Of a stretch of 64,000 nucleotides of DNA, positions 23,806 to 58,056 are shown piece after piece (the stretch's first letter is position 1; the number at the start of each line of letters is the position of its first letter). The DNA is taken from positions 1 through 64,000 of IMG/VR virus record IMGVR_UViG_3300037067_003400; one strand, 5' to 3'. The notes beneath the pieces were generated by a model. That model was not told where the DNA came from. It did not search any database and saw only the letters and a list, made by a program, of their open reading frames with translations. The translations under genes were made by a program, and so were the position numbers. The stretch is from a virus (taxonomy: Duplodnaviria; Caudoviricetes).

Positions 23806-23909
23806 TATATATCCTTATAATATAGGCCACCCAGACTGATGGGGAGGACTACATCAGCCTGAGTGACATCTGTAACAGCTACCTTACCAAAGATACTTTG
23901 TATCTTCTA

Positions 23910-25571
23910 TTAGAAAGTAGCTCTTCTATTAGTTGTTGGAACAAATGTTCTATGTAAATCTTTCTTTGCTGGTTGTCTTCCTAAGTCATTATCAAGATCA
24001 TAATTTCTTCCAGCATGAACATTTAATGCCCCACGAGGAACATCCTTTTCCTCTAAAAATTCTTTAGTATTTAATACTAAGTAGCTTTGTGTAAGATTAA
24101 GTCTAAATGGATCTGCATAGTTTTTGAACATTGCGTAACAAGCTAAACAAACTGCGTCAATAAGATGTTCATCTACATCAGAATATTTAATACTATTTAC
24201 AGATACACCTACTACCCTATATCCTTGCATTTGTCTTGTTAAACTTTTATCATGCTGGGAGAATATAAACTTGTTTTCCTCTAACCATTTTACCAGTATG
24301 TTTACCATAAAAGGTTTTATTGGTTTAGTAATAAGTCCATCTATTGGATCCATTACTTCTATCTTATCACTAAAGGTAAAGCCTTGCACTTTTTTATCTA
24401 AGTCTGATCCTGGGTGATTTTCTCCGTGCATGTGTAGAAGCTCTATCTGCTGTTCTCCGTAACCCCTATCTACATAGATATGTTTACACTCAAATATTCT
24501 ATCTAAGTCTATTATCCTTTGTACTGTAGAGGAAAGCACATACTTTGCTTTTTCTACTTCTTCTACATAACAGAGTTTATATACACCCAATTCTATATCT
24601 AATTCCAGTATTACAATAGAAGGTCCAGCCTGGTATTTATCCCAGTCTACCCCCATTGTTCTAACAGCTTTTGGAGCTCTAAAGCCAGGAACATTAACTT
24701 CTTCTTTACTATAGTAAAAGTAAGAGCGTTGAGCTCTATCTATATAAGAGTTCTTGAATACACCATCAGATATATCTGGGAAGTCTGCCATCCACTCTAA
24801 TAAGAAGTTAGTTTCAGTTTCAGTAGCTCTTGCAGCATCTATCTTTTCTTGTGGATATTCTGGGTTATCTGTTACTGGTACATGTATTCTATCCCATCTT
24901 TCTGATTCTGGGACATTTGTTTGGTCCATAGTACATATACGATGATAGGTTCCACGGAAAGCTTTAGGTGTTGAAGAAACCATACATGATACTTCTCTTG
25001 TAGCATCTCCAGTTATAATAGCATTAATTGCTTTCCAGTCACCTTCGCCCTCTGTTGTGTCATCAAGATAAGCTGCCTCATCTACTATGACATCATCAGC
25101 AGTGCTTCCTCTTATAGAGTCTGCACCTTTCTTAGCTCTTGCTCCAGTGGTGAAGCCTGAGATTGTAGATCCATTAGTAAATTCTATTACATGGAACGGA
25201 CTTGCCTTAGAGGATTTAACTAACTCTTTTACTAAAGGACTTGCGTTAATAAAATTAGATAGTAACCTAAATAAAACTACAACCTGAGATTCTCCAGGGC
25301 ATATAATAAGAACCTGGTTATTATCTTTAGTTGTACTTTTCCATAACGCTCGGATTAATATTCCCCAAGACTTACCAGCTCTTCTATGAACTCTAATAGC
25401 TATCTTCTTTGATTTAGAAGATAGTATCTTTCTTTGCACATAGTTAAGACGTATGTTTCCTCTGTTAGGGTCTTCGGGATTATTTAATATTAGTTCTGCC
25501 CATCTTATGGGATCGGCAAAAATATCTGCTAATGTATTAAGTTCTTCTTTTGATAGTTCATCTATATTCAT
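23910..25571 (-). CDS. terL: Terminase large subunit
   Basis: Walker A HRRAGKS, Walker B VIVDEA, SSTP coupling motif, nuclease MGVDWD and DEHLIDA. Confidence 0.95.
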   Translation of the reverse strand: MNIDELSKEELNTLADIFADPIRWAELILNNPEDPNRGNIRLNYVQRKILSSKSKKIAIRVHRRAGKSWGILIRALWKSTTKDNNQVLIICPGESQVVVLFRLLSNFINASPLVKELVKSSKASPFHVIEFTNGSTISGFTTGARAKKGADSIRGSTADDVIVDEAAYLDDTTEGEGDWKAINAIITGDATREVSCMVSSTPKAFRGTYHRICTMDQTNVPESERWDRIHVPVTDNPEYPQEKIDAARATETETNFLLEWMADFPDISDGVFKNSYIDRAQRSYFYYSKEEVNVPGFRAPKAVRTMGVDWDKYQAGPSIVILELDIELGVYKLCYVEEVEKAKYVLSSTVQRIIDLDRIFECKHIYVDRGYGEQQIELLHMHGENHPGSDLDKKVQGFTFSDKIEVMDPIDGLITKPIKPFMVNILVKWLEENKFIFSQHDKSLTRQMQGYRVVGVSVNSIKYSDVDEHLIDAVCLACYAMFKNYADPFRLNLTQSYLVLNTKEFLEEKDVPRGALNVHAGRNYDLDNDLGRQPAKKDLHRTFVPTTNRRATF

Positions 25572-25580
25572 AGTTACTTG

Positions 25581-25997
25581 TTACCTTCGGGCATACCTTG
25601 CAGCCATCATACTGGCTTCGCTACCTATAAAACCACGTCCTGCTCCTATTGCTTGCATTCCATATTGTTGTGCTTGAGCAGTTGCATCTGAATGTGTGAA
25701 AGAATGTGAGAAGGGCATCTTTATAGAGCGTTGCCAAACATTAGAAGTTTTGTTATATGCATATAAAGCTTTAGCTCCATTATAAAAAAGACCAGGTCCC
25801 TGTGTGATTAACATTGCAGGAAGTGGCCCCATTGTAGTAAATGCTACTGCGTTTCCTATAGCTTGTGTTGCAGATAGTAATGGATTAACTCCATTCTCTA
25901 CCCTACTTTTATAAGCTGGAAACTCAGAAGCTATTCCTAATCCAGCTATACCTATAGACATAAACCTTTTAGATAGTAGACTTATTACACCAGCCAT
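25581..25997 (-). CDS. Gly/Ala-rich small virion-associated protein
   Basis: Amphipathic Gly-rich sequence upstream of terL. Confidence 0.5.
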   Translation of the reverse strand: MAGVISLLSKRFMSIGIAGLGIASEFPAYKSRVENGVNPLLSATQAIGNAVAFTTMGPLPAMLITQGPGLFYNGAKALYAYNKTSNVWQRSIKMPFSHSFTHSDATAQAQQYGMQAIGAGRGFIGSEASMMAARYARR

Positions 25998-26041
25998 TTA
26001 TTATTCCTTTACGTTATAAGAAGACTATAAATAGTCTTCTG

Positions 26042-26545
26042 CTATTTTCTTCTATGTAATGCTAATGGTAAATCTCCAGTAGCTCCAAGCATATCAGGTC
26101 TCGTTACTTCCATCATCCCAGAAGGAGACATCTCAGCTTGGTAACCAGGATGTTTAGTAGATAAAGCTCCTGCTGCTGCTCCTGCTGCTGCTCCTACACC
26201 CATTCCACCCCAGAATAATTTGTTTTGCATACCTTGTGATAATTGGAAAGCTGCATGATCTGTTGCTCCCCAGATATCATTAGCAAAAATAGGAGTCTGT
26301 CTTTGTGCGTTAAAAGGAGTATACCTTGCACCACGTGCTAATAATATACTTGCACCTAATCCAGCACCTGCTATGGTTCCACCAACTGATAGAACCCCCC
26401 TACCTATACCAAGAGCTGCTGTTCCAACAGCTGGCATAAAAGGTAAAGACCCAGTGCCAATAGCTTTAGCTGCAGAAAGTAATCCTCTTCCAGCAAGTTT
26501 AGCACCAGATCCAGCAATCTTATTTATAGGGCCCCAAAAAGCCAT
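26042..26545 (-). CDS. Gly/Ala-rich protein
   Basis: Glycine-zipper-like hydrophobic segments; clear RBS AAGGA. Confidence 0.55.
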   Translation of the reverse strand: MAFWGPINKIAGSGAKLAGRGLLSAAKAIGTGSLPFMPAVGTAALGIGRGVLSVGGTIAGAGLGASILLARGARYTPFNAQRQTPIFANDIWGATDHAAFQLSQGMQNKLFWGGMGVGAAAGAAAGALSTKHPGYQAEMSPSGMMEVTRPDMLGATGDLPLALHRRK

Positions 26546-26632
26546 TTTTTATATATCCTTTGTATAAAAAGTGGAAGCCATTTTTTATATATCCTTTTCT
26601 TTAATTATAATAAGTGTAATTAAAGTTTTGTA

Positions 26633-27214: not shown

Positions 27215-27245
27215 AGTGTCACCTTACTTCTTTGCTTTTCCTGTA

Positions 27246-28001
27246 TTAGCTGGTGTCATATTCGGAGGAGCCAGTACTGCTGGCAGTGTCTTCGTCTGCG
27301 TCTTCAATGTTCCCACCGGGGAGGCAGGTTTGCTGTTCGTTCCCTTGCTCATTAGTTTCCTTCGCTTTCTTTAATATTTGTGACATAAAGTTACCAGTAT
27401 TAGAGACAACTTTACTTTCTTTAACTGACTTGTCTAACTTATCTTTTCTTGATGCAATAAGTTGTTTATATTTTTCACCTATATCTCTACGAACTTCACG
27501 AGACATTTTAAAACCTAATGATATTTCAGGCTTCAATACTTCAGCACCGGTCTTCTGATTTACACCAGCAGTCACCATATCAAAGATAGGGTGAGACTTC
27601 TGATATAGGTCACAACGTTTCATGTGTATGTGTAACCTTATTAAATCCATTACAAGCTGAAGGTCTGTAAAGTCATCTGGAGATATTTCTAATTCTTTAA
27701 CATATCCTACAAATAATCTTGTAGCTTCCATTAGTTCTATAGGACAAGCTTTGCCTTCAAATTCATTTATACTATCTTCTGGGATAATACATCCGACAGT
27801 GAAGGGACAGCTCTTCCTACCTATACATAAGATAGGTACATCAGTATAGATACCATGTTGACTATTAAGTGTCCTTATAGTCGTAGGTGTCCATGCTCCT
27901 CCAAGTTGATTAGCTATGAGAGTATCTGTTGGGTATGCATTAAGGATATTTTCTATAGGAGTTTTTGTAAAGTCTACACGTAGTGCAGGAAGTTTTGCCA
28001 T
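27246..28001 (-). CDS. Cys-cluster protein heading the packaging operon; candidate terminase small subunit
   Basis: C.....CP....C...CP Zn-like cluster with a helical body; upstream of terL. Function inferred from position only. Confidence 0.4.
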   Translation of the reverse strand: MAKLPALRVDFTKTPIENILNAYPTDTLIANQLGGAWTPTTIRTLNSQHGIYTDVPILCIGRKSCPFTVGCIIPEDSINEFEGKACPIELMEATRLFVGYVKELEISPDDFTDLQLVMDLIRLHIHMKRCDLYQKSHPIFDMVTAGVNQKTGAEVLKPEISLGFKMSREVRRDIGEKYKQLIASRKDKLDKSVKESKVVSNTGNFMSQILKKAKETNEQGNEQQTCLPGGNIEDADEDTASSTGSSEYDTS

Positions 28002-28014
28002 ATTTTATTCCAAA

Positions 28015-28132
28015 GTAGGAATACTTAGTATTCCTGATGTAGAAGAACTAATTAGTTCTTCGGTGTAGAAGATATTATATATCTTCGATGTAGTGGATAT
28101 AGTTATATCCACGTGCGGTAGGGGTCTCCCTA
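28015..28132 (+). repeat. Array of five GTAG-initiated palindromes at about 25-bp period
   Basis: GTAG at 28015, 28039, 28065, 28090 and 28118, each overlapping or followed by an inverted repeat; GRTGT(A) linkers between the first four. Confidence 0.9.
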
Positions 28133-28211
28133 AAAGTGATATAAATTTTCTCTTACATATATAAAAGAGGCATATTAATCACACTAATGAGGAAAGTCTA
28201 TGAAAAAATAG

Positions 28212-29231: not shown

Positions 29232-29671
29232 CTTAGTAGTTGACTTCTTATCTTAACTATCACCGATTCTATAGTAGTTATTTCTGTAAGTAAAGTACTT
29301 ATCTGGATATCTGCACCTGTTAGTGTATTAGCTCCTATAGCTGCCTGGTCTTGTCTACTCTCTATTTGTTTTGTAAGTAATTCTATTAGTGCAGACATAT
29401 ATTCATAAAGCATATATATTATATTATAGGTATACTCTATAGTATTCTTATTAGGTTGAACTATTGGAGTTTCTGATATTAAATCAAAATAGTCTACTGC
29501 TCTATGTATTACTTCTTGCTCTGCTGAATCATATACTGTAGATGTATTACTACCAAAGAAAGGCGCACTATTAAAGAATGGTTGCTCTCCATCTGTTACT
29601 AAGTCCTCTGGGGATATTCCTCCGAGCTCATCTTCATACTCTTCATCTTCGTCATGAAAGTCTTTATCCAA
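29228..29671 (-). CDS. Hypothetical acidic protein
   Basis: ORF with upstream GGAGG, coupled to the epimerase gene. Confidence 0.55.
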   Translation of the reverse strand: MDKDFHDEDEEYEDELGGISPEDLVTDGEQPFFNSAPFFGSNTSTVYDSAEQEVIHRAVDYFDLISETPIVQPNKNTIEYTYNIIYMLYEYMSALIELLTKQIESRQDQAAIGANTLTGADIQISTLLTEITTIESVIVKIRSQLLR

Positions 29672-29753
29672 TTAGTAGCCTCCACGTAGGGAAGGGTAAT
29701 ACCCTTCCCGTTACACATGTAAGAGACTTATAAAGTCTCTGTTGTATTTTTTA

Positions 29754-30443
29754 TTATATACCAGTAGGGATTCCCATTATTTCATCTAATTCTGTTGGGT
29801 TAAGTGTCAAAGCCTCATCTCGTGTATTCTCTAATACACTATCTCGTGAGTTTGCTAACTCACTATCTACTGTGGTTTCAGGCTCGAGCTGTTTTTCTGC
29901 AAAGGACATAACACATTCCCAGGAACACATACTTCTCTTTTCATTTCCATATCTTATAAAGATAGCACCTTCTTGTATAGATCTTTCACACTCAGCACAA
30001 GGAACATGCCCATCTATAGCAACCCTATCTTGTGAAGCCATTATCTCATTACGTAGCTGAGATACTGTCCAGTCAGCATCTACTGCCATCTGTATCCACT
30101 CTAAAGGATTATCAGTCCCAGACGCATATCTATAGTGACTCCAACTAAGATGAGTAGCTCTGTTATCCTTAGTAGGAAACTTAGACGACACCCATCTATA
30201 CTGTCTCATTGTGCCAGGCTTTTCTCCAAGCTGTAAAGCAAATGCTGCTAAGCCTTCTGCCCCAAGGTCATGTTCTACCTTTATAGATAAATCTCCTAAT
30301 GCCCACTGGCTACTATTATGAACGTCCTTTATAACAGTACCACGTGATACAAGTTGCTCTAAAGTTTCTGGAGCAAGGTTTTCCTGATCTTCAGGTAACG
30401 GTGCAATTTCCTCTAATGATGCTACTACTTCTTCAATTGTCAT
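29754..30443 (-). CDS. Putative DNA-binding regulator (LmbU/DUF1016-N-like helical domain plus C-terminal Zn finger)
   Basis: WALGD, FA..LG....T...Y..V...FP, LSWSHY, WTV..LR; CAEC...CSWEC. Confidence 0.55.
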   Translation of the reverse strand: MTIEEVVASLEEIAPLPEDQENLAPETLEQLVSRGTVIKDVHNSSQWALGDLSIKVEHDLGAEGLAAFALQLGEKPGTMRQYRWVSSKFPTKDNRATHLSWSHYRYASGTDNPLEWIQMAVDADWTVSQLRNEIMASQDRVAIDGHVPCAECERSIQEGAIFIRYGNEKRSMCSWECVMSFAEKQLEPETTVDSELANSRDSVLENTRDEALTLNPTELDEIMGIPTGI

Positions 30444-30704
30444 TATTTACTCCTCTTAAATTGTAGAAGGTATTAAAAAATATCTTCGTTGTCTACTACA
30501 TAAACTGTATCTTCTGGGCAAGCCGAGGATATAAAAATATCATCTCACTGCAGGTGTAACTACAACTGGCATGTCCAATAATCTAAAAAGTCTATTATCT
30601 CCGTCATGTGCAATTTCTACTCTTGCTCTTCCTTGATGTCTTTCTACTATACCTCGTCTTGGGTCAAAGCCCTCTTCTTGTACACCTTCAGGGCCTATTG
30701 TTAA

Positions 30705-31253: not shown

Positions 31254-31737
31254 GCCAACTACCTCCAGTAAAAGTAGTGCTTGCATAGACAGGACTCCAC
31301 TCTCTTCGTACTTCTGTCCATGCTCTACCATTAACATTATTAATATCTGAAGAAGTAATATGAGGGAAGAGTAAGTCATTCACAGTCATATCTACCCAGT
31401 CTACAGCAGACTTGGTTACTGGTATAGCTTTTGTCATTATACCAGAAAATATATCATGTATGATATGTTGCCCTCCAGAAATTAGAAGTGACTTCATTAT
31501 ATCTTCTACTTCTGACATAGGTATATCAGAATCTGCATCTGTTTCATTATGTCTTGGTATATGCGATATATGTGTAACATTACATACTTTCATTATAGTT
31601 CTAAGCAAACATATCAACAAATCCACGTTAGAAGCTGTGTATCTTATTCTCGTTCCTGCTCTATTACTTTTATAATCAACCATTGTAGCTATATCTGATT
31701 CATACACAGTCTTTAAAACATTATTAGTTATTACCAT
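31246..31737 (-). CDS. Hypothetical protein, first gene of the left arm
   Basis: GGAGG RBS and a TATAAT hexamer upstream. Confidence 0.6.
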   Translation of the reverse strand: MVITNNVLKTVYESDIATMVDYKSNRAGTRIRYTASNVDLLICLLRTIMKVCNVTHISHIPRHNETDADSDIPMSEVEDIMKSLLISGGQHIIHDIFSGIMTKAIPVTKSAVDWVDMTVNDLLFPHITSSDINNVNGRAWTEVRREWSPVYASTTFTGGSWRV

Positions 31738-32365
31738 ATATCCTCCACTCTATCCTACATATATATTATACCCGCATTCCACTAATTTAAACACTGTTTT
31801 TTGTTACATATGTAACATTTAATTATTTATCTATTTATTATTAAATGTAACATTTAATTAAACTTTGCCTTTTTTACATATAGTCTGTAAGCCAAGGAGG
31901 AAATAATATTCCCAGAAAACAAAAATACTAAGCCCCACCCCCTTTTACATAGTATATAGTAAACAGAGGAAGACTCCTCTTACGTAAGGTCTACCCCCCT
32001 TAATAGAAAGACTATTAAGGTCTGTCCCCTTGGTATAGTCGTAGATACCAAAGGTACCTACTATAGTTACCAAGGTCTGCCTCCTATAAGAGATGCTTTA
32101 TATATAAGGTATCCCTCTATAAGATAACTATTTTTCTTAATACACTTCCGAAGATATTTTTAATATCTTCTATTCCTAACTCTATAGAAAGATCTCAAAA
32201 TTTAATCATTCTTCCAGCACTAGGTATATATTCAAGAAGGTGGGGGTATACTCTTTGTTTAGCCCAACCCGTTGATGATACATCAACGTCTATCCTCTTG
32301 TGTGTATAGCTTTAGTAGACACTCAAAGTAGATTACAGTTACTAAGGCAAAGAAAGGAAAGAACA
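31738..32365. promoter_or_regulatory. Divergent intergenic control region between the two arms
   Basis: Strand switch; contains the palindromic operator (31803), AAGGT repeats, several hairpins and a minus-strand TATAAT near 31765-31770. Confidence 0.7.
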
Positions 32366-32905
32366 ATGTCTTTCAACTTATTCGAAACAATCGGCAATGC
32401 AGTAGCCAACCTGCAAACAACAAAAGTACAGGAAGTCTTAGACTTCGTGTACGATAAGAGTGTTGAGGCTAAAGAAGCCTTAACGCCAAGCTATGATCTT
32501 ATCTACGACAAAGTCGTAGAAGTAAAAGAGTCGATAGTTGACTCTTACTACACTGGCTACAACTCAGTAGTCAAGACAACAGAAGAAGAAGTCAACCCTA
32601 TCATGTGTGGAGTTGACGAGTCAACAGTTAAAGCGTTCTTTAATGCTTACTTAAAGAACAGAGATATAGATGCTACCAAAGCATCATTCATATCTCTTGG
32701 CTTGTTGTCTACTGCACAAGCTGAGTTCATTGCTGCTGCAGTAGCAGCAGATGTGGCCAAGTATGGCAACATACTTGATCCATTAACAGATGAGAAGCCT
32801 GTTAAAACAGAGGCTCCTAAAGAAGGATGTGTTTCTTTAGAAGAAGAATTAGAGTCGGCTTTAGCAGAAGCTAAAGAATACGATTCAAAGAGATTGAAAT
32901 TCTAG
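32366..32905 (+). CDS. Hypothetical early protein (start revised to the ATG at 32366)
   Basis: AAGGA RBS before MSFNLFE; internal repeat YDKSVEAKE / YDKVVEVKE. Confidence 0.65.
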   Translation: MSFNLFETIGNAVANLQTTKVQEVLDFVYDKSVEAKEALTPSYDLIYDKVVEVKESIVDSYYTGYNSVVKTTEEEVNPIMCGVDESTVKAFFNAYLKNRDIDATKASFISLGLLSTAQAEFIAAAVAADVAKYGNILDPLTDEKPVKTEAPKEGCVSLEEELESALAEAKEYDSKRLKF

Positions 32906-33059
32906 TCTCTAGACAGAGCTCTCTGGGTGCATGCTCAGAGGGCTCTACTGTAGGGACTACAGTGAAGAACATAGTTCTTCTACACTTAAGTTAGTTACTA
33001 CTATGCTAGATGACACTCACTCTAACGAGGGGATTACAGAACTAGCAAAGGAGAGATCA

Positions 33060-33341
33060 ATGCTTAGAAGTATCGAACAGGAATTAGACCGCTTAGTCGA
33101 GTTCAAGGAAATCACAAAAGAAGTCAGACATGACTTCTACCTAGTAGCACTTGACATAGCTGCTAGCTGGGCATTAAGCAACTACCCAGCAACAGCTTCA
33201 CTATCCCTCCAAGCCAGTCACGCTGGTGTTGGAGCTACCGCTTGGTCAGATACCAAATGGTTTGGTGTTTGCCCAGTTACTCGCTCTAGAGGACCTAAAC
33301 TCAATGAGCAGCTAACAAAAATTAGAGATAACCAACTCTAA
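33060..33341 (+). CDS. Hypothetical early protein (start revised)
   Basis: AAGGAG RBS before MLRSIEQ; the tracked start at 32931 lies inside a long hairpin. Confidence 0.6.
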   Translation: MLRSIEQELDRLVEFKEITKEVRHDFYLVALDIAASWALSNYPATASLSLQASHAGVGATAWSDTKWFGVCPVTRSRGPKLNEQLTKIRDNQL

Positions 33342-33347
33342 TCTTAA

Positions 33348-33420: not shown

Positions 33421-33446
33421 CAGAAAAACACTCAAAGGAGACTGAA

Positions 33447-33779: not shown

Positions 33780-33906
33780 TTAGTTTCTAAAACATTGCTC
33801 CTTTATTATGACCAACTGCATAGAAGATAGTTTTATCTATCTTCGATAATGAAGGGGCTTTGTTGTAGGAATTAAATCATTAACCTACAATTCAAAGGAG
33901 GAAGTT

Positions 33907-36003
33907 ATGAACGTAGTATGTAAGTTGTCTGGAGCTTCTATAGGAGATGCTCCTAATTGGAGAGGTGTATGTGAACTTGTAAAGAAGTATACCTCTGGGG
34001 AACTTCCAAGTCCCCAAATTCTTAGTCTTGGTGCTGGAATTAACTGCACCACATTACTTGCTCGGAACACAAAAGATTCAGTAACTTTTCCTGTGTTCTA
34101 TTTTGAAGTGTATAACAAAGGAGTGAATTAATGGTGCACGTCTCAGAAATTTTAAAGCAACTCATATTAGAAGAGATTGAGGAAAGAACTTCTGGGGGTA
34201 ATTCTTTGACCCCAGATGATTTTGTTTCTATTGTTGAGAGAAAGGTTAATCTCTTAGGAGACAAAGCCTTCTCTCAAGACGTGGTATCTACTGCTCGTGA
34301 AAACAAAAGACAAGCAGAGAAAGCTATCGGAAAGAGGGCGGAAGAATCTTCCCAGTTTACCAGGGAAGCCGCATTGAATATTCTTGCAAGTATAGTTTCT
34401 TTAGGAGGGATGTAAAATGAATAAGTGGATTAAAACATTAGTAGTGTTAGGCGGATTTGTAGTAGTGGACAGAGTTATAGCAAAGGCTATAAATGAAGCT
34501 ACAAAAGCAAGTAATAGAAGAGTCATTGAAAAAATACTTGCTGACTTCCCAGATAGAAACATAATCACATTTGGAGGCAAGAAATGAATAAGGTACTTGG
34601 AATTATTGCTATAGCTATTGCAGCTGTAGCTGGTGAAATTCTGATTGACAAACTAATTGAGGAGCCTTGTAGAAAGGCTCATGAGAGAACAGTCAAACAG
34701 ATTCTGGAAGCATACCCAGAAAGAAAATTCATTGTGTTGGGAGGCAAAGATGAAAAAGGCAATTAAAGTATTACTGGCTGCTGTTGCAGTCATAGGTTTC
34801 CTCTTTCTGCTGGAGTACACAGCAGAATTTGTAGCTACTAAGATACCGGCAGAGGTAGTCATACCTCTGTTTTTTGTAGGGCTCTTCGTAGGGCTCTACA
34901 TCTTCTTTAGCAGAGAAGATAATTAATTCACTGGGGAGCTCTCTTTGGGCTCCCTTAGTTTATTCACCTCTCGATTTGTAAAAGGAGTACATTAAATGGA
35001 ACAGCTTATTGGATTCGTAGGAAAAAACGTAGACCATGAGGTCGGCGACGTTATGGAGCTTGGGACCGTCACAAAAGTAGAATATGATAAAACTACTAAC
35101 GTAACAACTGTTACAATAAAAGAAACTAATCCCTGTGAGGGATGTTATGAAGATGAATGCACAAATATAGCTTGTGCAAACTACATAGCTTAGTTTCTAC
35201 ACCAAGCTCCTTGCCCACACACCGAAGGAGGAATTCTTCTCCGCAGGGGGCTTGGCTGTGGGAATTACCGAAGAATCAATGATTCTTCTACATACCCACT
35301 ATACCCAAAGGAGGGTAACATGAAGAATATAATTGTTTTAGTTAGAGGTGATCCTATTGTTCACCTAACGGAATTGGTATATCGGGAGTGGCTTGTAGAA
35401 TCAGAGCCTTCCGAGGGAACTGGGAATGTAGTTTCCGGCGACGAACTTATAGCTCTATTAAGAGCACTGAGGTCTCAGTATGGGACAGAATTTAAAGTGG
35501 AGAGATATTAAATGAAACAGGAAGCTCAAGCAACAATTATTGAAATGGCAAAAGGTTGTAAGTTTGGTGGAGAAACTTACAATATAAATGATGCTGTATA
35601 CCCAGTGAAAGAAACTATGATAGGTTTAACCTATATGACTATAGGTAAAATTACTGTCATACAGCAAAATATTGCTAAGGATCCAGCAAATAAAAAAGCA
35701 ACCCTGAATAGGTTTGTTGTAAGCTTAGATGCTGGTTCTACCGACGAATACTTCCTCACGAAGACAATAGGGGAAGTCTTTTATACTCGTAAAGGTAATA
35801 TCTTCAAATTCAGTGAATACAAAAACACTGAAGCAAGAAAGACAATGAAGAAAGTTGGACCCAAATCCAGAAGTGCGGATACTTCAATAGCATCCACCGG
35901 GAACTCTGCTAGAGTTCCCTACACTGGGTCCAAGGAGTCGAAGACTCCGGTAGCTGCTAAAGCGTCTGCCAACAAAGATGCTGAGGCTACTAAAGTTGCC
36001 TAA
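33907..36003 (+). CDS. Cluster of small early ORFs (33907, 34131, 34417, 34584, 34750, 34996, 35320, 35512)
   Basis: Most have AGGAG/GGAGG RBSs or are coupled; 34417..34587 (56 aa, not tracked) and 34584..34766 are tandem paralogues. Confidence 0.6.
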
Positions 36004-36356
36004 TCTTAGTAGACAATGGGGAGTAGTTCTTACTCCCCAGGTTACTATTTTCTGTAACCTTCTAATAGAGGGGGTTGAATTTGTAAGAGATATATTTAAT
36101 ATCTCTGGTGTTAGAAGCTATCTTGTAGCTTCTTTAGTTTCCTGGGAGTTTCATCGTAGATATAAAATATCTACTTTATCGAAGTTCTCAGGGACAGCGT
36201 ATGAAGGGGTAGAAGATATTATATATCTTCGTGTAGAAGATACATGTGTATCTTCGGGTGGATGCTTATATTTATGATTTGCTTTAAATTAGTAGGAATA
36301 CTATATAGTGTTACATGTGTAACTTGTTTTGTATATTTTAAAGGAGAGTACTTGAA

Positions 36357-37916: not shown

Positions 37917-38589
37917 GAGGAAGCTATGACTAAACAAGAAATAGGTATCCAAGTAAGAAGATTGTGGCAGTTTTATTCTTTGCCACAGGACACAACTGAC
38001 CCAGAACTAAATGAGTTACTGGACTTGATGACTTCTAAGGTTTCTGGTGAAGCCTATGATTCTAATAGGTATTTCTTTCTATTAGATATTTATACTAATA
38101 GTTATCAGTTTTAGTTACACATGTAACAGAAAGTGTTACACATGTAACAAGAATATAGTGTGTTTGGTAGTCTCTATTTGTGGGTGTATTTGTGGGTCAC
38201 TTTTGATCTCAATTGTTTGCTTATTTGTTTGGAAAAGGTGGCCCGCACTTGAGTGTAATAGACTCAAGTAACCTATCAAAAAAAGTGCCTTACTTGCTAT
38301 ATTTTAAATCTCGTTGTTACACATGTAACGGATACTATGTATTCGTGGTGTATTAAAAAGGAGAGTATAATGAATCTGGATATGTTTATCCTATCCCATC
38401 TTAAGAAGGCACAGCAAGCTTTATGTCTTCGAGAGTATTGGGACGTGGTATCAGAAATCTCTGTACTGGGCAAAATAGACCCAGCTTATGGAGTATTACT
38501 ATCTAATACAGAAGAACAGTTAGTTCTTATGTTAAGATGGCAGATTGCTTGTGTAGTAAATAGAATACATATTGAGAAGGGACACTAAA

Positions 38590-40529: not shown

Positions 40530-41033
40530 ATGTTTAAAGGAGACCAATTCTTTCTCAGTAACTTCTACCCCGTCAGTATCAATTATGACGGGGACGTTTA
40601 TCCTTCAGTGGAGAATGCTTTTCAGGCGGCTAAAACTGCTAAAGAAAACAGAGCTCCATTTCTTACTTGTCACCCATCTATAGCTAAGAAGCTTGGTAGA
40701 AAAGTTAAGCTTAGAAAAGATTGGGAGAAGAGTAAAAAAGACTTGTTGCTTTACTTATTGAAAGTAAAGTTTATGCATCCAGAGCTACGTAAAAGGTTAT
40801 TGTCTACTGGTAATACAATACTGGTAGAAGAGAATACGTGGCACGATAACTTTTGGGGAAAATGTATTTGTCCCCTATGTGATAGTGTCTCACATCTTAA
40901 TGTTCTTGGTGACTTGCTTATGCAGGTTAGGGAGTCTATGAAACAGCTTCAAGTTAAAACTCAAGGCTCTAAAAAACCTACTTATTATTATATCAAAGGA
41001 GATACTGAAAGTATCACCGTCAAAGGAGATTGA
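40530..41033 (+). CDS. NADAR (YbiA-like) family protein
   Basis: FLSNFY, SVENAFQAAK, KKLGR..W, KF...LL.TG...LVE, D.FWG, N.LG.LLM.VR. Confidence 0.9.
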   Translation: MFKGDQFFLSNFYPVSINYDGDVYPSVENAFQAAKTAKENRAPFLTCHPSIAKKLGRKVKLRKDWEKSKKDLLLYLLKVKFMHPELRKRLLSTGNTILVEENTWHDNFWGKCICPLCDSVSHLNVLGDLLMQVRESMKQLQVKTQGSKKPTYYYIKGDTESITVKGD

Positions 41034-41034
41034 T

Positions 41035-41688
41035 ATGAAAATCTATACAGATGGTTCTTATGACGTTGCCCGAGAAATGGGTTCGTGGGCATATGTAACT
41101 GAAGCTGGAGAATCTGCCTCCGGCATTATAGCTTATCCAGAGGCTCGTAACATTGATGGAGAGATTTTAGCTGTGATAATGGCTATAGACAAATATCCAG
41201 AAGCTCAAATCTTCACAGACTTACAGGGTATACCAAGATGGGTTTCCAAAAAGTGGAAAGCCAATACACTTGTATCACAGAACTTGCAGAATTTTATGAC
41301 TGGAAGAAAGAATGTTATCACGTGGGTTAAAGGACACAGTGGAAACCCAACCAACGAGCAAGTGCACAAGTTAGCATCTTCGATTCTAAAGTCAGAAGAA
41401 GCTACCAAGATATACAACCGTAAAAAGTGCAGGGCTCAATACTCCCCAGAGTTTAATACTCTACCTGATACTTTTAAAAAGACTATAATAGGTGATGTAG
41501 TCCAAGAGGCTATAGCAAATAATATAGTCTTCAACTTCGAGAGACCAGATTATGGTATCACTGAATTTCTTGCTGATTATGGCTTAGAGTTTATGAGTGG
41601 CAAAACCAATTTCATAGGCACTAAAGATATGTCAGTAGAGACACAGCTTATTATAGTCAAGAAGCTTGTTAATGCTCTTGTCTTGTGA
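41035..41688 (+). CDS. rnhA: Ribonuclease HI-like protein
   Basis: IYTDGS, GEILA, IFTD, WVKGHSG..NE; the last catalytic Asp appears replaced by His (NEQVHKLA). Confidence 0.85.
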   Translation: MKIYTDGSYDVAREMGSWAYVTEAGESASGIIAYPEARNIDGEILAVIMAIDKYPEAQIFTDLQGIPRWVSKKWKANTLVSQNLQNFMTGRKNVITWVKGHSGNPTNEQVHKLASSILKSEEATKIYNRKKCRAQYSPEFNTLPDTFKKTIIGDVVQEAIANNIVFNFERPDYGITEFLADYGLEFMSGKTNFIGTKDMSVETQLIIVKKLVNALVL

Positions 41689-41775
41689 TTTATGCCCTGC
41701 GACCTTTTCTGAGTGGATCCCTATGCTCCAATATGCTTAGTGGATCCCTCTTAACTTTTTAACTCTTGCTATGGT

Positions 41776-43311
41776 ATGGATATTCTTTCCATAGCTATTC
41801 CTGTTATCAGTAAGCTACAACAATACTTAGTATGCTTACTTAAGGGGAGTAATTCCCAGAAAGAGAGAGTTAAGTTGGACACTGAATCTAAATCTTCAGT
41901 AGTTCGAACAGGCTTTGAGGTTACAAGCCAGTTGCAAACAATGGGCGGAGTCTCATCATCCGAATTTGTTTGGAATAGAAAAAACCTAAGGAATACTATC
42001 TTTGACCCTTGTTTTATGGGCAAAGATGTATACATTGACCTTCTCAAAGTGTCGAATGGCACTGGTTTCCCAATGTATGAGGATGGTATTCCTCTTCAGC
42101 TAATACTTATTCCTTGGGATTTACGCAAGGACTTAAAGAAGAACTATAATGGAACCTATCTGCTTAGTGGGTTGTTAGCATCTGCTAATGAGCTTGCAGG
42201 TGAGGTTTCAAAGGCTAAAGTTTCTGGTGATATAAAGAGAGTTCAATCTTTAGTAACCAGAACTTGTTGCGCTTATGCTGAAGAACTATTGAGAACTCTC
42301 AATATAGATTTAGCACGACCAAGAAATAAATTATCTGGGAACCTTGTTGCCGTCCCAGATATAAGACACGATATCTTCTCGAGTTTAACTGCCTTTAAGA
42401 GAGGCTTGATTTCAGACTTGAGACCTGGTGAGATAGGTGTCTCTACTAAGGTTCTTAACAAAATTAATAACGGGAGAGACGTTCCAAAACGTATTGTTAA
42501 GAATGGTGACTATTTCATCACGAGTCGTTGGCCGTGCACTGATGTGCGTCCAATGAAGATTGTTGAACGGAATGAACATTCCTTTGTTGCTTACGTGTCA
42601 GCTGATTGGTTTACAACTACAGAGCACGAAGCTCCTATTCAACAGATGAAACTCTTCGAAGGAGACAACGACGGAGACACATTATTCTTCAACTTTGTTA
42701 CACATGTAGCAGAGGTGATGGATATATATGATAAGTTTATGGACGACGTAACCGTAGTTCCATTTACTCCAATGTCTTTAACTTATTTAGACCACGAGGT
42801 CTTAGATTGTAACGAGTTGCAGATAGCAACTGATAAGGCAGACCAGAAGAACTGGATTATGCCTTTAAGTGCAGCTATGTATGCTGGTTATGCTTTTATG
42901 GAGAACCGTGAACAACAAGGTCTCCCAGTCAATATGACTAAGCTTGAGTGGTGTGAAACTATGACTCAGGCTTTAGAGTTGTGCTTTGATAAAAAGCATA
43001 ATAATAATTCTAACCCTCGTCCTTTATATGGTATGCTCCAAGCAAAAGAGGGTTATACGTGGAATGCTGTTGTTAAGTTGCTGGAAGTCCAGAATCTTAA
43101 CATTGACATCCTTTACAAAATGCACGAAATGCTTGACGGTCAATCCCTAAGAGAAGCCGCAAGTGCTAATCTTCCGTTTAAAGTCGTGCACCAAATGCGT
43201 GGTGCTGATACTAAGAAACGCTTACAAACCATAGAAGCTTTGCTTCAGCAACCTGAACTTTGTAAGTGGTTTGTTTCTAACCTAGTTCCATCTTTACAAG
43301 GAGAGTGTTAA
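41776..43311 (+). CDS. Minimal RNA polymerase beta'-like (catalytic double-psi barrel) subunit
   Basis: FEGDNDGD ~ NADFDGD; SRWP ~ NRAP; LIPWDLR ~ VLPPDLR; SGNLVAVPD ~ SGRSVIVVG. Start codon uncertain. Confidence 0.8.
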   Translation: MDILSIAIPVISKLQQYLVCLLKGSNSQKERVKLDTESKSSVVRTGFEVTSQLQTMGGVSSSEFVWNRKNLRNTIFDPCFMGKDVYIDLLKVSNGTGFPMYEDGIPLQLILIPWDLRKDLKKNYNGTYLLSGLLASANELAGEVSKAKVSGDIKRVQSLVTRTCCAYAEELLRTLNIDLARPRNKLSGNLVAVPDIRHDIFSSLTAFKRGLISDLRPGEIGVSTKVLNKINNGRDVPKRIVKNGDYFITSRWPCTDVRPMKIVERNEHSFVAYVSADWFTTTEHEAPIQQMKLFEGDNDGDTLFFNFVTHVAEVMDIYDKFMDDVTVVPFTPMSLTYLDHEVLDCNELQIATDKADQKNWIMPLSAAMYAGYAFMENREQQGLPVNMTKLEWCETMTQALELCFDKKHNNNSNPRPLYGMLQAKEGYTWNAVVKLLEVQNLNIDILYKMHEMLDGQSLREAASANLPFKVVHQMRGADTKKRLQTIEALLQQPELCKWFVSNLVPSLQGEC

Positions 43312-43312
43312 T

Positions 43313-45271
43313 ATGGAATTTGCATATGAAATCGAGAAAGACCTATTTGAAATATATAAAATAGGTTTAGAGAAGTTCCTTGTTCTAAACTATAAGGGCA
43401 AGGAATATAAGACCAGAATTCCTATCACAAGTGATGGTAGGATAATACTGCCTTCAGGTTCTCAGCCTGTGTTTAGAAAGACTGTCGAAATCACATATGA
43501 TGATTTCAAGCCAGAAGTCAAGATGTATCAGAACATTGAGCAGTGGATTATAAAAGACTGCCAAGACCCTAAACTTCAGGGTTATATAGTTAGTATGCTG
43601 AAGCAGTCAGAGGGTGATGTCTCTGCTTGTGAAAACTTAGTTCGTGGTTTGCTTCTTAAATCATTGAATAAGTTTTATAAGTCTACTACGGTTTGGGAAG
43701 ACCCTGGTTCAGATTTTGAGTGTTTTGCTCAGAAGCTAACCTATGTCTTAGCAGATGGTGTGCCTCCTACTCGTAGAGGCGGATTCTTCCCTGATTCAGT
43801 AACTAAACACAGATTGACATTTCTCCGAGCTTTAGAAAATCAGGGAGTGTCTTCCTTGTGTGCAACTCAGCCCGGTGACCCGGGCACAACAGCTGATTGG
43901 GTTGATAAAGCAACTGGACTTCCTGTTTATATGGGAATTCAGCCGATGGCTTTAGAATGTCATCCTATGCGTTATGCTATTCAGAGAGGCTTAACGCATT
44001 TTGTTAAGTTACAAAACTCTGAAGCTCCATTTGTTAATGTAGAAGAGACATTAAAGTATCCGTCTCTTCAGACTGTGAATGCTAATGTCATTTGCGGAGA
44101 CTTAGGTCTTAACGATTCGGTGATTATTTCCCAGGACTTAGCAGATAGACTTACTGGTCTTGAGGATGAGGTTCACACCCATACTCTTGACGGTTTGATA
44201 ACTTGCAGAGGTGAAAGTGAGCCTTTAACTTTCCCAAGCGTCGTGAAGAGAAGTATGCTTCAGAAGACTGAAACTGCTTATGATGTCTTTGTGAGATATC
44301 GCAGACTATGGCTCTCCAAGTATGGGGATGAGAGCAAGGTTAGCCAAGTTCGTAAGAAACATCTTCTTAGTGTGATGAAAACGTGCCCGCTATTAAGTGT
44401 GGTATGTCCTGATGTTCAGGAACGTATCCACTTGAATATGTATAACTGTGAGTATGGAGAAAATAGCTCCGAGAGTTTTACTAAGTTTCGCAGATGGTTA
44501 CAACTTAATGACAAATATGCGACAGATATGTTGCCTTTTAACCATCTTAATCAGCCTGTGTCAAGAAGATTTCCCGGTGTGGGAATTGATAGACTTATAG
44601 CTGAATCTAATTCCGGTAGAAGTGTTCTTTATAAAGAATTTCACGGAATTGACAAGAATAAATGCCGAGTCGGTGCTAAGTTACAGACCGACGCAGACTT
44701 AGCAAAAGGTGTTTGTAACATCTTTGAGAATGAGCGTATGCCATTTATCAAGAGAGCTGATGGCACTATGGTTAGAGCAGATTTAGTCGTTGATATGGCT
44801 AAATCGACCAAGAAACACGGTTCTCTTCGTTTTGCTCATCTAACTATGGCTTTATATGCTATAGGACAAGCTAAAGGCGGTATAACCGTAAAGGTTTCTG
44901 AGCCGTGGAGTGATGAGAAGATTGTTGCAACTGGTAAGAGATTGGGTATCTATGATGATGAGTCTCTTACTTGTGAGATGTGGAATGATACACAGACTCA
45001 CGTTCTTGGGAAATTTCCTGCCGGCGTTATCCGTATAGGTAGACATCGTCAAGACCCTGATATTCAGGGCGGTGTCGTTGGTGAGTTAGGCAAGAAAGAG
45101 TTAACTGCAAGAAACGTTCTTAAAGAATCTGGAGTTAGAGATGGTTTTATTGATACTAACGTTCAGATGGCTTTTGGTTTCATAGAGTCAGCTAAAGAAC
45201 TCAGGCGTGTAACTCCCAGTGCAAAGAAGAAAGTTAATGCACTTGAGAGAGTTTTAGTGTTCAATAACTAA
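43313..45271 (+). CDS. Minimal RNA polymerase beta-like subunit
   Basis: NDSVIISQDL ~ EDAILISERL; GAKL...KGVC....RMPF...DG...DLVV ~ GDKL...KGVV....DMPF..DG..VDIV; SGVRDG.....MAFG ~ GGQRFG.....EAYG; SEAPFV ~ AEAPIV. Confidence 0.85.
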   Translation: MEFAYEIEKDLFEIYKIGLEKFLVLNYKGKEYKTRIPITSDGRIILPSGSQPVFRKTVEITYDDFKPEVKMYQNIEQWIIKDCQDPKLQGYIVSMLKQSEGDVSACENLVRGLLLKSLNKFYKSTTVWEDPGSDFECFAQKLTYVLADGVPPTRRGGFFPDSVTKHRLTFLRALENQGVSSLCATQPGDPGTTADWVDKATGLPVYMGIQPMALECHPMRYAIQRGLTHFVKLQNSEAPFVNVEETLKYPSLQTVNANVICGDLGLNDSVIISQDLADRLTGLEDEVHTHTLDGLITCRGESEPLTFPSVVKRSMLQKTETAYDVFVRYRRLWLSKYGDESKVSQVRKKHLLSVMKTCPLLSVVCPDVQERIHLNMYNCEYGENSSESFTKFRRWLQLNDKYATDMLPFNHLNQPVSRRFPGVGIDRLIAESNSGRSVLYKEFHGIDKNKCRVGAKLQTDADLAKGVCNIFENERMPFIKRADGTMVRADLVVDMAKSTKKHGSLRFAHLTMALYAIGQAKGGITVKVSEPWSDEKIVATGKRLGIYDDESLTCEMWNDTQTHVLGKFPAGVIRIGRHRQDPDIQGGVVGELGKKELTARNVLKESGVRDGFIDTNVQMAFGFIESAKELRRVTPSAKKKVNALERVLVFNN

Positions 45272-45340
45272 GGTACGGCCTTCGGCCTACCTACTACGAC
45301 TTACTTTACCACACTTTATATCTCTCGAGTTGATGGGATT

Positions 45341-45377
45341 GGGAGCCTGCCCTTAGCGGGGTGGGCTCCCCCTTTTT
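45341..45377 (+). terminator. Intrinsic terminator after the RNAP genes
   Basis: GGGAGCCTGCCC/GGGTGGGCTCCC stem (with G-U pairs) followed by CCTTTTT. Confidence 0.75.
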
Positions 45378-45415
45378 GGCTTCTGAAAGCCATATCACAA
45401 TTCCCGTCAGAAAAG

Positions 45416-46678: not shown

Positions 46679-47217
46679 AAAATTTTGTCTCCTGAAAGCT
46701 ATACTCGGGCTACTTAGAGGAAGATACTCTTCTTCTATAGGTAGCCCCTCTTTATTTTTTACCTGAAGGTAGGTGATGTGTTGAAAGCTAATTGGATTGT
46801 GTTGTTTATTATATTGGCTGTCATCTGTGCTATCTTTGGACCGGGAGCTGCCTTGATAGTTCTTGGCATACTCTTGTTTGCCAGATGGTGTGCGTATGAT
46901 GATGAACAACAAAGAAAGAATAAGCAGTAGGTGTTGGGAGGCTGCGCCCCTTCGGGGCTTGCCTTCTCTTGGACGGGGCGTGTCGTCATCACGGAGTAGA
47001 AGATACGTTCGTATCTTCGGAGTGATACGGACTTCGTCCTACCTACTACGGCTTACGCGCCGTTTACTATTTATCTCTTTTTGTGAGGGATTCAGAGAGT
47101 GTTTCCTTCTATGAGGCAACAAACCTCAACAAGAACTATGTAGGTTAATTGCCTTCGTATCTTCTATTGTTGTTCGAGGTTGACGAGACCTCTATTCTAT
47201 ATCTTAGGAGTATACTA

Positions 47218-47862
47218 ATGTCTAAAACGCAAACACCAGCAGATACTGCTGAAGACCTTGGCACTATTGTTTCTTTAGAAGAAGTTAAAGAAGCAGTTGC
47301 CAATGTAAAACCAGAAATCCTTGCAATTTCTGATTTAGATTTAGGAAGTGATACGGTCGATACCAAACTTCCAAGATTTGAACGTGCGATGGTCAAGAAG
47401 TATAAATACTTCGCAGAATTAGACGGCATTAAAGCCTTCTATTCCCTTGTTTTTGTTAAAACAGAAACAGGTGTGGTCAAGACCAATCCACAGGGTAAGC
47501 CAATTATTAGTGGCTTGCAGGTTGGGATTATCTTCGATGTTTTAGGTTCTCCAGGTATGCTTGATAGCATATACATAAAGAAGAACCCAAGTGGCAACTT
47601 CTTCTGGATTGTCGGTGACGCTCAACAGACTATAACCGGCAAGATAAAAGACGTTGACTATGAACAAGTCGTGTCAAATATGTCAGCTGTTGGAACAGGC
47701 GACTCCGTCAAATACTTTGATGAATGCCGTTTCAATAAGCTCACACCAGCTAAAGAGGGAAGACCTAAAGGCGGTATCTACCCTGTCTTCGCATTGAATA
47801 TGAAAGAACTTGCTCCTGTGTTATGGGCAGGGCTTTCAAAAGCAGAACCTATAGTTATATAA
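47218..47862 (+). CDS. Hypothetical protein, possibly nucleic-acid binding (start revised)
   Basis: AGGAG RBS before MSKTQTP; followed by a strong hairpin near 47878-47907. Confidence 0.6.
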   Translation: MSKTQTPADTAEDLGTIVSLEEVKEAVANVKPEILAISDLDLGSDTVDTKLPRFERAMVKKYKYFAELDGIKAFYSLVFVKTETGVVKTNPQGKPIISGLQVGIIFDVLGSPGMLDSIYIKKNPSGNFFWIVGDAQQTITGKIKDVDYEQVVSNMSAVGTGDSVKYFDECRFNKLTPAKEGRPKGGIYPVFALNMKELAPVLWAGLSKAEPIVI

Positions 47863-57100: not shown

Positions 57101-57174
57101 ATATGGAAAATTTTAAGTCTTTTAAAGATGATGTCTATGGCAAGTGGATAGTAGGTGCTGTAGCAAAGATATAA
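48160..57174 (+). CDS. Dense array of about 25 small hypothetical and membrane ORFs
   Basis: Co-oriented, abutting ORFs; several are hydrophobic (48160, 49038, 49263); no recognisable enzyme motifs. Confidence 0.6.
56327..56761 (+). CDS. Protein with a tandemly duplicated small phage domain
   Basis: G.IVDVKDLETSFLKHQLSYF...AFENELNCR resembles GDILIYQMSTDHIQKCISYL...LMAAEFETR. Confidence 0.65.
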   Translation: MKFENRKGEIVDVKDLETSFLKHQLSYFRNRCREDENYIEAFENELNCRNGLPNNTERCYPTTWKSKTGDILIYQMSTDHIQKCISYLKTNVSKDKEAIALMAAEFETRTDDHEYEHPSNGSGGYPYIDEDNADCIDPMVNWGD

Positions 57175-57609
57175 AAAGTAAGTAAAGACGCACAAACAGA
57201 GGGAAGTGAAAAGATATTTAGTAGTTGTTCCTTAATTCTCATGGCATGCAACTGTCAGGACTGGAGGAGTGTATGTAGTATGTATGGTTGTACCTCAACT
57301 TATTTTTTTTGGTTCGCTTTTTAATTGAATCTTTTTTGTAGGGAGGTTAGCATGTTAGACAGTATCCTCTCTTGGCTTGGTGATTTTGATTGGTATGACT
57401 TCGATAGACCGTACTATTGTAACGGAGACATTAAGGTTTATGTCCGTAGTTTGGAAGCTACATACCTTAAATCTAAAATAGTTATCAAGTTGAGTAAAGT
57501 TGTGCTTGTAACAATAGCTGCTGTTAAACAATCTATATTAACAGCAAGCAATGCATTGAAATGCAACTCGCCTCCGGTGATGAAAACTATATAGAATAAT
57601 TATTAATTA

Positions 57610-58056
57610 GGGTTTGGCAAGAAAGGTTTACATGCCTTTGCTGTGCCAAGTGGGGTTCTTACTACCCAGGGATTAGGATTAACCCGAAGATACTTAGTAT
57701 CTTCTATATGACTGTTCTTGAAATAAGAGTGTGTCTATGCACAGATATCTCCTCATAGGCTTAGGAAGCTTGGCTTCTGTGACGGTAGCAAGATTGTAAT
57801 TGCTAACTACAATTATATACTAAACCTCTGTTAGTAGCTACCGAGACTTGGAGACCTTGTAATACAGAAACAATGCCTTAAATAGTGGCTCCCTTAGCAA
57901 CGGAGTATGCTACGTGTGTCAGTCTTGCTCGAGAATGTAGACTGTGGTTAGGGTAGAGTCGCTGTGGTGCGTACACAGACCGTAGAGATACATAACAAAC
58001 ATCTCTACCGAGATAAAGAGCTGGTTGGATTCCAGTGCTCTATCGTCAACCATATA
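57610..58056 (+). ncRNA. Large structured ncRNA candidate (unassigned)
   Basis: ORF-free, relatively GC-rich, with at least 11 helices including a three-way junction and a 3' T-loop-like hairpin. Confidence 0.65.

Follow-up and report, generated by a model that had tools for sequence, protein, structure and literature searches.

High-copy repeats consisting of a short hairpin tagged at one end are known from bacterial chromosomes, where they rely on a domesticated HUH nuclease. These GTAG-tagged repetitive extragenic palindromic (REP) elements occur in bacteria with RAYT (TnpA-REP) nucleases (PMC3733652, PMC3479197, PMC2817692). They carry the tag at one end, form subfamilies with complementary stem changes, show frequent G·T pairs, units lying 1 to 5 bp apart and intragenic copies, and have a patchy, species-specific distribution (PMC3733652). 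We found no description of REP-type tagged hairpins in phage genomes in the literature. Two hairpin systems described in phages are also relevant here. The early promoters P1 to P3 of phage N4, which serve its virion RNA polymerase (RNAP), are three co-oriented hairpins with stems of 5 to 7 bp and a conserved purine triloop (PMC4496689), and the PeSL cassettes of T4-type phages consist of a terminator hairpin joined to a sigma-70 early promoter and point in the same direction as the genes (PMC2839356, PMC4122927). Here we describe a family of tagged hairpins, ∼23 copies of 22 to 26 nt according to a covariance model and relaxed scans, in the first 64 kb (the window) of a single virus contig of 210,951 bp (CheckV completeness, 98%).

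The family was strongly overrepresented compared with shuffled controls. The pattern TAG-[perfect stem of at least 7 bp, loop of 2 to 9 nt]-CG occurred 15 times in the window, versus 0.14 ± 0.35 times in 100 dinucleotide shuffles, and perfect hairpins with TA..G flanks and stems of at least 8 bp on either strand numbered 15, versus 0.37 ± 0.66 in the shuffles. Perfect hairpins of that size with any flank numbered 45, compared to 7.4 ± 2.7. A covariance model built from 17 sites and run with filters off rendered 15 matches in the window (23.8 to 33.4 bits), all of them between 23.9 and 57.7 kb, while in the remaining 147 kb of the genome the best score was 19.9 bits and no family member was observed. 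The family is thus restricted to 23.9 to 57.7 kb of this 211-kb jumbo phage genome. An earlier reading of the window, made from the sequence only, had listed 15 sites; all of them are present at the positions and on the strands it gave, and the 23-bp identity that it reported between 28065 to 28087 and 36209 to 36231 was confirmed. That list was incomplete by 10 members, namely, 26016, 28016, 29719, 36080 (the same as 36083), and 38322 (the same as 38325) on the plus strand and 29821, 29845, 32036, 35898, and 36151 on the minus strand. It also took in two sites, 45276 and 47028, that proved to be the two copies of a separate 30-bp repeat (see below). An Rfam scan over 23 to 59 kb gave no match at an E value of ≤1.

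The refined unit reads 5′-t-R-T-A, a stem of 7 to 9 bp starting with GRRGA, a free loop of 3 to 6 nt with no conserved base, and G-N-TGT-3′. Constant flanks, (G/A)TAG..CG, around differing stems had been proposed before. The flanks are indeed shared, once corrected to a 5′ R-T-A and a 3′ G; what had been the fourth letter of the tag is the first base of the stem, where A is possible. The stems, on the other hand, are not free, as most share the core GAAGATA..TATCTTC, and every 5′ arm is purine rich at its start (GAAGA, GGGAA, GTGGA, AGAGA, and others). Among 22 tags there were 11 GTAG, 7 ATAG, 3 GTAA, and 1 ATAA, so that positions 1 and 4 may be any purine; the first stem pair was G-C in 17 and A-T in 4 of the same 22 sites. 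All eight stem pairs showed changes on both sides with 100% of the cells paired, a percentage raised by the fact that most members had initially been picked up as perfect stems. Selection of the stems made no use of the flanks, in which T, A, and G are nonetheless nearly invariant, so that constraint on the flanks exceeds that on most of the stem. An unbiased one-mismatch scan gave four credible imperfect members (23888, 30463, 32036, and 38325); the mismatch was in each case a G·T on the tagged strand, without a single A·C, and chance matches elsewhere in the genome carried random mismatches. In 30463 the tagged strand is the noncoding strand, so that the mRNA would carry C·A. Covariation of the stem pairs together with invariant flanks supports the earlier view of the hairpins as structure-specific, strand-oriented recognition sites. 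A possible extension of the helix by wobble pairs between the flanks TGT and GTG remains unproven and weakly supported, since the three pairs (TRT with RTR) were paired in 62% of cases and showed no covariation. DNA folding energies were modest (−2.2 to −8.8 kcal/mol), and several copies are perfect AT-rich palindromes.

Two simple assignments were discarded on the basis of this anatomy. The 3′ flank G-N-TGT is not T rich and lacks the U-tract of intrinsic terminators, and a terminator scan flagged only 26019 and 29722 among the family members; the hairpins therefore do not fit intrinsic terminators, which are GC-rich hairpins with a U-tract behind them. The double-stranded operator of a dimeric protein was rejected as well, since the total length is not constant (19 to 22 bp) and several stems have unrelated sequences.

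Gene direction changes between ∼31.7 kb, where the leftward genes begin, and ∼32.3 kb, from which rightward genes extend to 125 kb, so that the family straddles a divergent switch. In agreement with the earlier description of the sites as mostly intergenic, 19 of the 23 copies lie between genes in a region that is 20% intergenic (P, ∼2e-10), although these counts, and those of orientation, rest on crude open reading frame (ORF) picks; a better start codon places 38325 in an intergenic gap too. With respect to the local genes, the tagged strand is the template strand in 14 copies and the sense strand in 9 (9 versus 7 when arrays are counted once), and the orientation of the family is thus unbiased. 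Five template-oriented loci (26016, 28016, 29686, 30463, and 35269) end 15 to 29 nt before start codons preceded by a ribosome-binding site, the other template-oriented copies lie 135 to 400 nt from the next start, and sense-oriented copies mostly follow stop codons.

We tentatively interpret the family as a lineage-specific REP-like element, a tag-plus-hairpin unit that would be recognized on a single strand and would have been copied in either orientation. The previously noted likeness to GTAG-tagged REPs holds in the anatomy: both are short stem-loops (20 to 26 nt) with a conserved (G/A)TAG tag at one end, subfamilies defined by complementary stem changes, and G·T pairs on the tagged strand. 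Both also occur in either orientation, mostly between genes with a few intragenic copies, in units 1 to 5 bp apart, and in a species-specific manner. Several features point to copying. The array at 28016 to 28113 contains four different stems and hence did not arise by local tandem duplication, the 23-bp identical pair (28065 and 36209) lies on different arms of the divergent switch, and 33820 and 36151 occupy, in opposite orientations, the apexes of two homologous long hairpins. Together with the 14-to-9 split in orientation, these positions inside older hairpin loops fit copied repeats rather than signals of transcription direction. The absence of the family from two distant relatives with ∼35 to 43% protein identity (see below) is in accordance with a lineage-specific element.

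Under this interpretation, one protein would read one strand, as a folded single-stranded or an extruded hairpin, at the base of the stem. Reading at that point would keep the tag, the first stem pairs, and the 3′ G fixed, and the distal stem and the loop would drift by compensatory changes. Growth of the family would have taken place in the early region on both sides of the divergent switch (∼32 kb), which is rich in hairpins. New copies, in either orientation, would have been placed beside existing ones, giving rise to head-to-tail arrays, and within the loops of long hairpins that were already present. Each copy, once in place, would fold in whichever transcript crosses it and would probably act as a boundary or stabilizer hairpin, as has been proposed for bacterial REPs.

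A considerable number of observations weigh against the REP-like interpretation. Concerning the nuclease, RAYT/Y1 (PF01797) gave no match at an E value of ≤1 in the 98%-complete genome with positive controls, and HUH proteins of the Rep_trans and phage GPA types (PF02486 and PF05840) gave none in the genome either. The earlier statement that no RAYT is visible in the window thus extends to the whole genome, and the hairpins reside in a phage genome without RAYT or any other HUH gene. Concerning distribution, bacterial REPs are genome-wide, whereas here ∼23 copies lie within 16% (one-sixth) of the genome; since that region, 23.9 to 57.7 kb, holds only ∼37% of the intergenic DNA, available space cannot explain the confinement. 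No second carrier was found either. The core pattern TAGAAGATA-N2-8-TATCTTCG matched 95 IMG/VR contigs once each, and a stricter version matched 76 bacterial or archaeal contigs, again once each, among 185,579 species-representative genomes; one match per contig is the chance level, and no clue to the host was obtained. Concerning structure, the stems are AT rich, perfect, 8 to 9 bp long, and without bulges, while bacterial REPs are usually GC rich, and only half of the tags (11/22) are exactly GTAG. Finally, the position of five template copies 15 to 29 nt before start codons suggests a role in expression. Other differences from bacterial REPs are that the tag is RTAR and not strictly GTAG, that there is an additional 3′ box (G-N-TGT), and that the arrays are head to tail, whereas BIME units alternate. 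The family is thus perhaps best described, with due reserve, as REP-like in build and behavior without being a member of the REP/RAYT system. One possibility for a phage family without a nuclease gene and restricted to the early region is that such elements may spread or persist without a resident RAYT, perhaps by means of a host enzyme, an unrecognized phage protein, or recombination; alternatively, the tag-plus-hairpin arrangement may have been adopted by the phage as a regulatory device. Whichever holds, the family offers ∼23 natural variants of a single recognition site.

The region also encodes a miniature RNAP, whose presence bears on another function for the hairpins. Two consecutive genes at 41776 to 45271 (plus strand) encode a β′-like protein of 511 amino acids (aa) and then a β-like protein of 652 aa. 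The 511-aa ORF has 14 homologues among 1.8 billion representative proteins, with an invariant R-x-P-x-T followed 46 residues later by an invariant G-D-x-D-G-D. When the family profile was compared with PDB, 13 of the 15 best matches were RNAP largest subunits at the NADFDGD loop, with nonsignificant E values (0.3 to 2.5). An AlphaFold model made with the alignment reached a pLDDT of 76.6 (the single-sequence model, with a pLDDT of 33, was useless), and the best 50 PDB matches of that model in Foldseek were all β′ or largest subunits of RNAP, the top match being the nonvirion RNAP of phage AR9 (PDB 7s00/7s01; E value, 9e-6), albeit with low TM-scores (0.2 to 0.25). By its modeled fold, the 511-aa protein is RNAP β′-like. 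The 652-aa ORF rendered only β-subunit (Rpb2_6) leads in ESM Atlas and no close relative in IMG/VR. The sigma-less RNAP pair postulated from the sequence is therefore real, given the β′ fold of its first member. The RNAP-type DxDGD motif was found in no ORF other than the 511-aa one, and that polymerase is of the two-barrel type; a search with PF00940 (single-subunit RNAP) gave no match, but neither did its controls.

A sigma-70 region 2 domain is present in a 240-aa ORF outside the window (genome positions 78994 to 79152, plus strand), so that redirection of the host polymerase by the phage is probable as well. Upstream of genes, TATAAT boxes are common at 71 to 103 kb and 142 to 192 kb and nearly absent at 32 to 63 kb, which suggests at least two promoter classes. 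Sigma-70-like sites were not enriched (55 versus 57.7 and 57 versus 63.1 in shuffles), none consistently adjoined the hairpins, and k-mer searches of the upstream regions in the 23- to 66-kb subset revealed no further promoter-like motif. A −35 role for the CTACA flank was also considered and rejected, as there is no room for a −10 box before the ribosome-binding site at 29686 and 30463.

The promoter function that had been proposed for the hairpins, by analogy with N4, was judged against this background. It is conceivable, though unlikely, that they are transcription signals of the phage's own miniature two-subunit RNAP. On a tagged template strand, the hairpin would be extruded to serve as a promoter, and transcripts would begin at the conserved T-A that adjoins the stem. 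A hairpin of the opposite orientation, present in the nontemplate strand or in nascent RNA, would cause pausing or termination or would act as an antisense promoter. Several facts speak for such a role: the polymerase is real, with a best structural match to an enzyme that reads its promoter on the template strand; copies head both divergent arms (30463 on one side and 32036 with 32149 on the other); five template copies end 15 to 29 nt before starts preceded by a ribosome-binding site; −10 boxes are scarce upstream of the genes at 32 to 63 kb; the regional confinement fits a temporal gene class; and the G·T pair of 30463 is on the template strand. Nevertheless, the promoter claim was not supported, since promoters should be co-oriented and 9 of the 23 copies have the wrong orientation. 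Furthermore, 36151 would fire into two sense-oriented copies before its gene, array units are only 25 nt apart, the polymerase genes lie within the region that they would have to transcribe, and a sigma factor is encoded by the phage as well. One would expect a conserved enzyme to retain its type of promoter, and therefore the lack of a comparable hairpin family in relatives that share the polymerase also weighs against promoters. Thus, of the earlier interpretation as a whole, the structure-specific sites, the likeness to REPs, and the RNAP pair stand, whereas its promoter component is weakened. The full mechanism, in which the mini-RNAP binds the folded template-strand hairpin to start and is paused or released by the nontemplate or nascent-RNA hairpin, appears somewhat less probable still. 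If it were true, it would give a first promoter and terminator logic for miniature viral polymerases (1,163 aa, two subunits) and a compact orthogonal transcription system, with a hairpin-promoter logic so far known only from the unrelated single-subunit enzyme of N4.

The comparison with N4 itself fails on loop conservation and stem length and apparently on enzyme type. Both systems have a template-strand hairpin upstream of early genes as the (here proposed) signal and a partly free stem sequence, and a start ∼11 to 12 nt from the loop center would fall on the conserved T-A of the tag. However, the stems here are 7 to 9 bp with free loops, unlike the conserved loops of the N4 promoters (PMC4496689), 40% of the copies point against genes, and the N4 enzyme is a T7-like single-subunit polymerase, compared to a two-barrel, multisubunit-type RNAP as the only DxDGD polymerase here. 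A GAA triloop is present only in the two 30-bp boxes at 45276 and 47028, and the purine loop of N4 is centered at −11. An N4-like genome was ruled out by the affinity of the major capsid protein, ∼35% identical to that of Bacillus jumbo phages of the 0305phi8-36 group, and by the 3,748-aa ORF, which contains only immunoglobulin-like, lectin, and carbohydrate-binding domains and was read as a fiber protein. Among solved structures, that of the AR9 nonvirion RNAP comes closest to the 511-aa subunit. This phage enzyme, multisubunit and sigma-less, recognizes a short motif on the template strand; it requires a fifth subunit for specificity as well as DNA containing uracil and is not known to use a hairpin. 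The link between hairpins and enzyme is, in our case, proposed by analogy. As for PeSL cassettes, they too contain a short hairpin, are repeated between small early genes, and occupy plastic regions of large phage genomes, and they have been proposed to mediate shuffling (PMC2839356, PMC4122927). A T4-type PeSL cassette was rejected because the hairpins described here lack a −35/−10 element and their orientation is mixed.

The hairpins might instead work only in RNA, as stabilizer, processing, or translation-control elements of early polycistronic transcripts that a host or phage RNA-binding protein binds or cuts, a possibility that we consider improbable. The palindromic stem would work in either orientation, as either strand gives a 5′-GAAGAUA..UAUCUUC-3′ stem, and the copies lie at gene boundaries, beside or on RNase III-like long hairpins with sense-strand G·U pairs, several of them abutting ribosome-binding sites. 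The early regions of T4 and T7 use intercistronic hairpins in this way. On the other side, the asymmetric flanks (TA 5′ and G 3′) are more conserved than the stems in both orientation classes, which would require two recognition modes, and the G·T pair of 30463 becomes C·A in the mRNA; stems of 8 to 9 bp are too short for RNase III, and there is neither a U-tract for intrinsic termination nor an Rfam match. Lower still in probability are DNA-structural sites tied to the divergent switch or to a probable origin at ∼32 kb, such as supercoil-absorbing cruciforms, gyrase or nucleoid-protein sites, or priming or packaging sites. The location of 21 of the 23 copies within 8.2 kb of the divergent region (31.7 to 32.4 kb) would fit such sites, as would the AT-rich block, the four iteron-like repeats, and the GC-skew turn found in that region and the ease with which several perfect AT-rich palindromes could be extruded. 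However, no strand bias was observed relative to a putative fork leaving 32 kb (8 plus versus 3 minus copies to the left and 6 versus 6 to the right), two copies lie well away from the switch, at 47 and 57.7 kb, plain cruciforms need no conserved asymmetric flanks, and the change of coding strand accounts for the GC-skew turn just as well. Primosome-type sites were rejected on the same lack of strand bias around 32 kb.

Two relatives of the phage (216,899 and 212,668 bp) share the polymerase at 32 to 43% identity. The covariance model gave no match in either genome, and no hairpin family sharing any flank was observed in them, with only a mild rise in hairpin density near the polymerase genes. 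The nearest relatives have diverged too far for their intergenic DNA to be compared. In one of them (G001; L001, positions 12205 to 12260), a perfect palindrome, AGAGTTCC-TT-GGAACTCT, lies after the β-like gene and its terminator, ∼35 nt before the next start; it contains the same 8-mers as the stem of the window hairpin 35898 with the arms swapped, a match that may be a coincidence. A near-identity DNA search of phage records gave no match to the window. Pfam and PHROG scans of 27 neighboring proteins identified only terminase, epimerase, PcfJ-like, NADAR, and RNase H proteins, and no candidate hairpin-binding protein among them.

Along the leftward arm, the outermost member (23888 to 23910, minus strand; 27.6 bits) is sense oriented at the stop codon of the large terminase gene, with a G·T pair at the base of the stem and TG at its end. 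The next one (26016 to 26041, plus strand), ATA-AGAAGACTA..TAGTCTTCT-G, is template oriented, 19 nt before the start codon at 25997. The head-to-tail array at 28016 to 28113 (plus strand) comprises members at 28016, 28039, 28065, and 28090 with spacers of 1 to 4 nt, in template orientation, and ends 15 nt before the start codon at 28001; a mini-CRISPR array was rejected, as there are no spacers of that kind. The pair at 29686 to 29741 (plus strand), with stems GGGAAGGGT (member 29686) and AGAGACTT (member 29719), is template oriented 15 nt before a TTG start at 29671, and its members flank a GTTACA-NN-TGTAA palindrome. Two adjoining members at 29821 to 29866 (minus strand), with stems GTGTATT and GTGAGTT, are sense oriented within the 3′ end of the ORF at 29754 to 30443. 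The member at 30463 to 30487 (plus strand), with one G·T pair on its tagged, template strand, lies 20 nt before the start codon at 30443.

The divergent intergenic region (31737 to 32366) contains a weaker member at 32036 to 32067 (minus strand; 18.8 bits, one G·T pair) and another at 32149 to 32173 (minus strand), which precedes the ATG at 32366 by 194 nt and has the template orientation with respect to the rightward arm. The same region includes an AT-rich block with a duplicated 16-mer, ATGTAACATTTAATTA, and four iteron-like repeats, TAAGGTCTNCCCC, spaced 31 to 56 nt apart, and it coincides with the GC-skew turn; judging from these sequence features, it could be an origin or a master regulatory region.

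To the right of the switch, four homologous long hairpins on the plus strand (32903 to 32959, 33780 to 33875, 35191 to 35267, and 36139 to 36194) start with TAGTTTC and lie at the ends of early genes; their sense RNA folds strongly (z, −5.5 to −7.6), their apexes are unrelated, and they look like RNase III-type processing sites. The member at 33820 to 33845 (plus strand, sense) forms the apex of the second of them, and that at 35269 to 35291 (minus strand, template) follows the third one by 2 nt and lies 29 nt before the ATG at 35320. The member at 35898 to 35922 (minus strand; stem, GGGAACTCT) is template oriented within the 3′ part of the ORF at 35512 to 36003. A cluster of mixed orientation at 36083 to 36256 includes 36083 (plus), 36151 to 36180 (minus), 36209 (plus), and 36233 (plus). 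It occupies a 354-nt gap before the gene at 36357, so that the template copy 36151, which is the apex of the fourth long hairpin, is followed by two sense-oriented copies before the gene. The member at 38325 to 38347 (plus strand, sense; one G·T pair) overlaps the right half of a palindrome at 38317 and lies 22 nt before the ATG at 38370. The member at 46996 to 47019 (plus strand) is sense oriented in a 540-nt gap before the start codon at 47218, and that at 57685 to 57707 (minus strand) is an outlier. A doubtful GC-rich hairpin outside this region (6208 to 6228, minus strand; 17.9 bits) fits TAG..CG and follows the gene ending at 6249; it is probably an ordinary 3′ hairpin.

The separate 30-bp repeat occurs at 45276 to 45305 and 47028 to 47057, both on the minus strand. 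The first copy has a stem of only 4 bp and a GAA/TTC triloop (GGTA-GGCC-GAA-GGCC-GTA), together with a conserved box, and shares with the hairpin family the logic of the TA..G flanks; the second one carries a compensatory stem change (GGAC/GTCC). Each copy is followed by a terminator-like hairpin, which for 45276 is an intrinsic terminator at 45341 to 45375. Just upstream of the β′-like gene, an 11-mer, AGTGGATCCCT, occurs twice, 28 nt apart, within 41690 to 41775, and GTGGAT is also present after hairpins 35898 and 36233 as GGTGGATGCT. A NADAR domain protein and an RNase H are encoded directly upstream of the polymerase genes (40530 to 41688, plus strand).

Finally, the palindrome tGTTACA-NN-TGTAACa (14 to 16 bp) is present 28 times in the genome, always with a 2-nt spacer, at 29711, 31804, 36311, 38115, 38136, 38317, 40451, and 49288 in the window and at 20 further sites. 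Relative G002 contains 14 copies and G001 none. It resembles the parS consensus, but no ParB N-terminal domain is encoded in the genome. In hairpins 29719 and 38325, the 5′ tag is at the same time the right half of this palindrome, which is probably the operator of a putative dimeric regulator.

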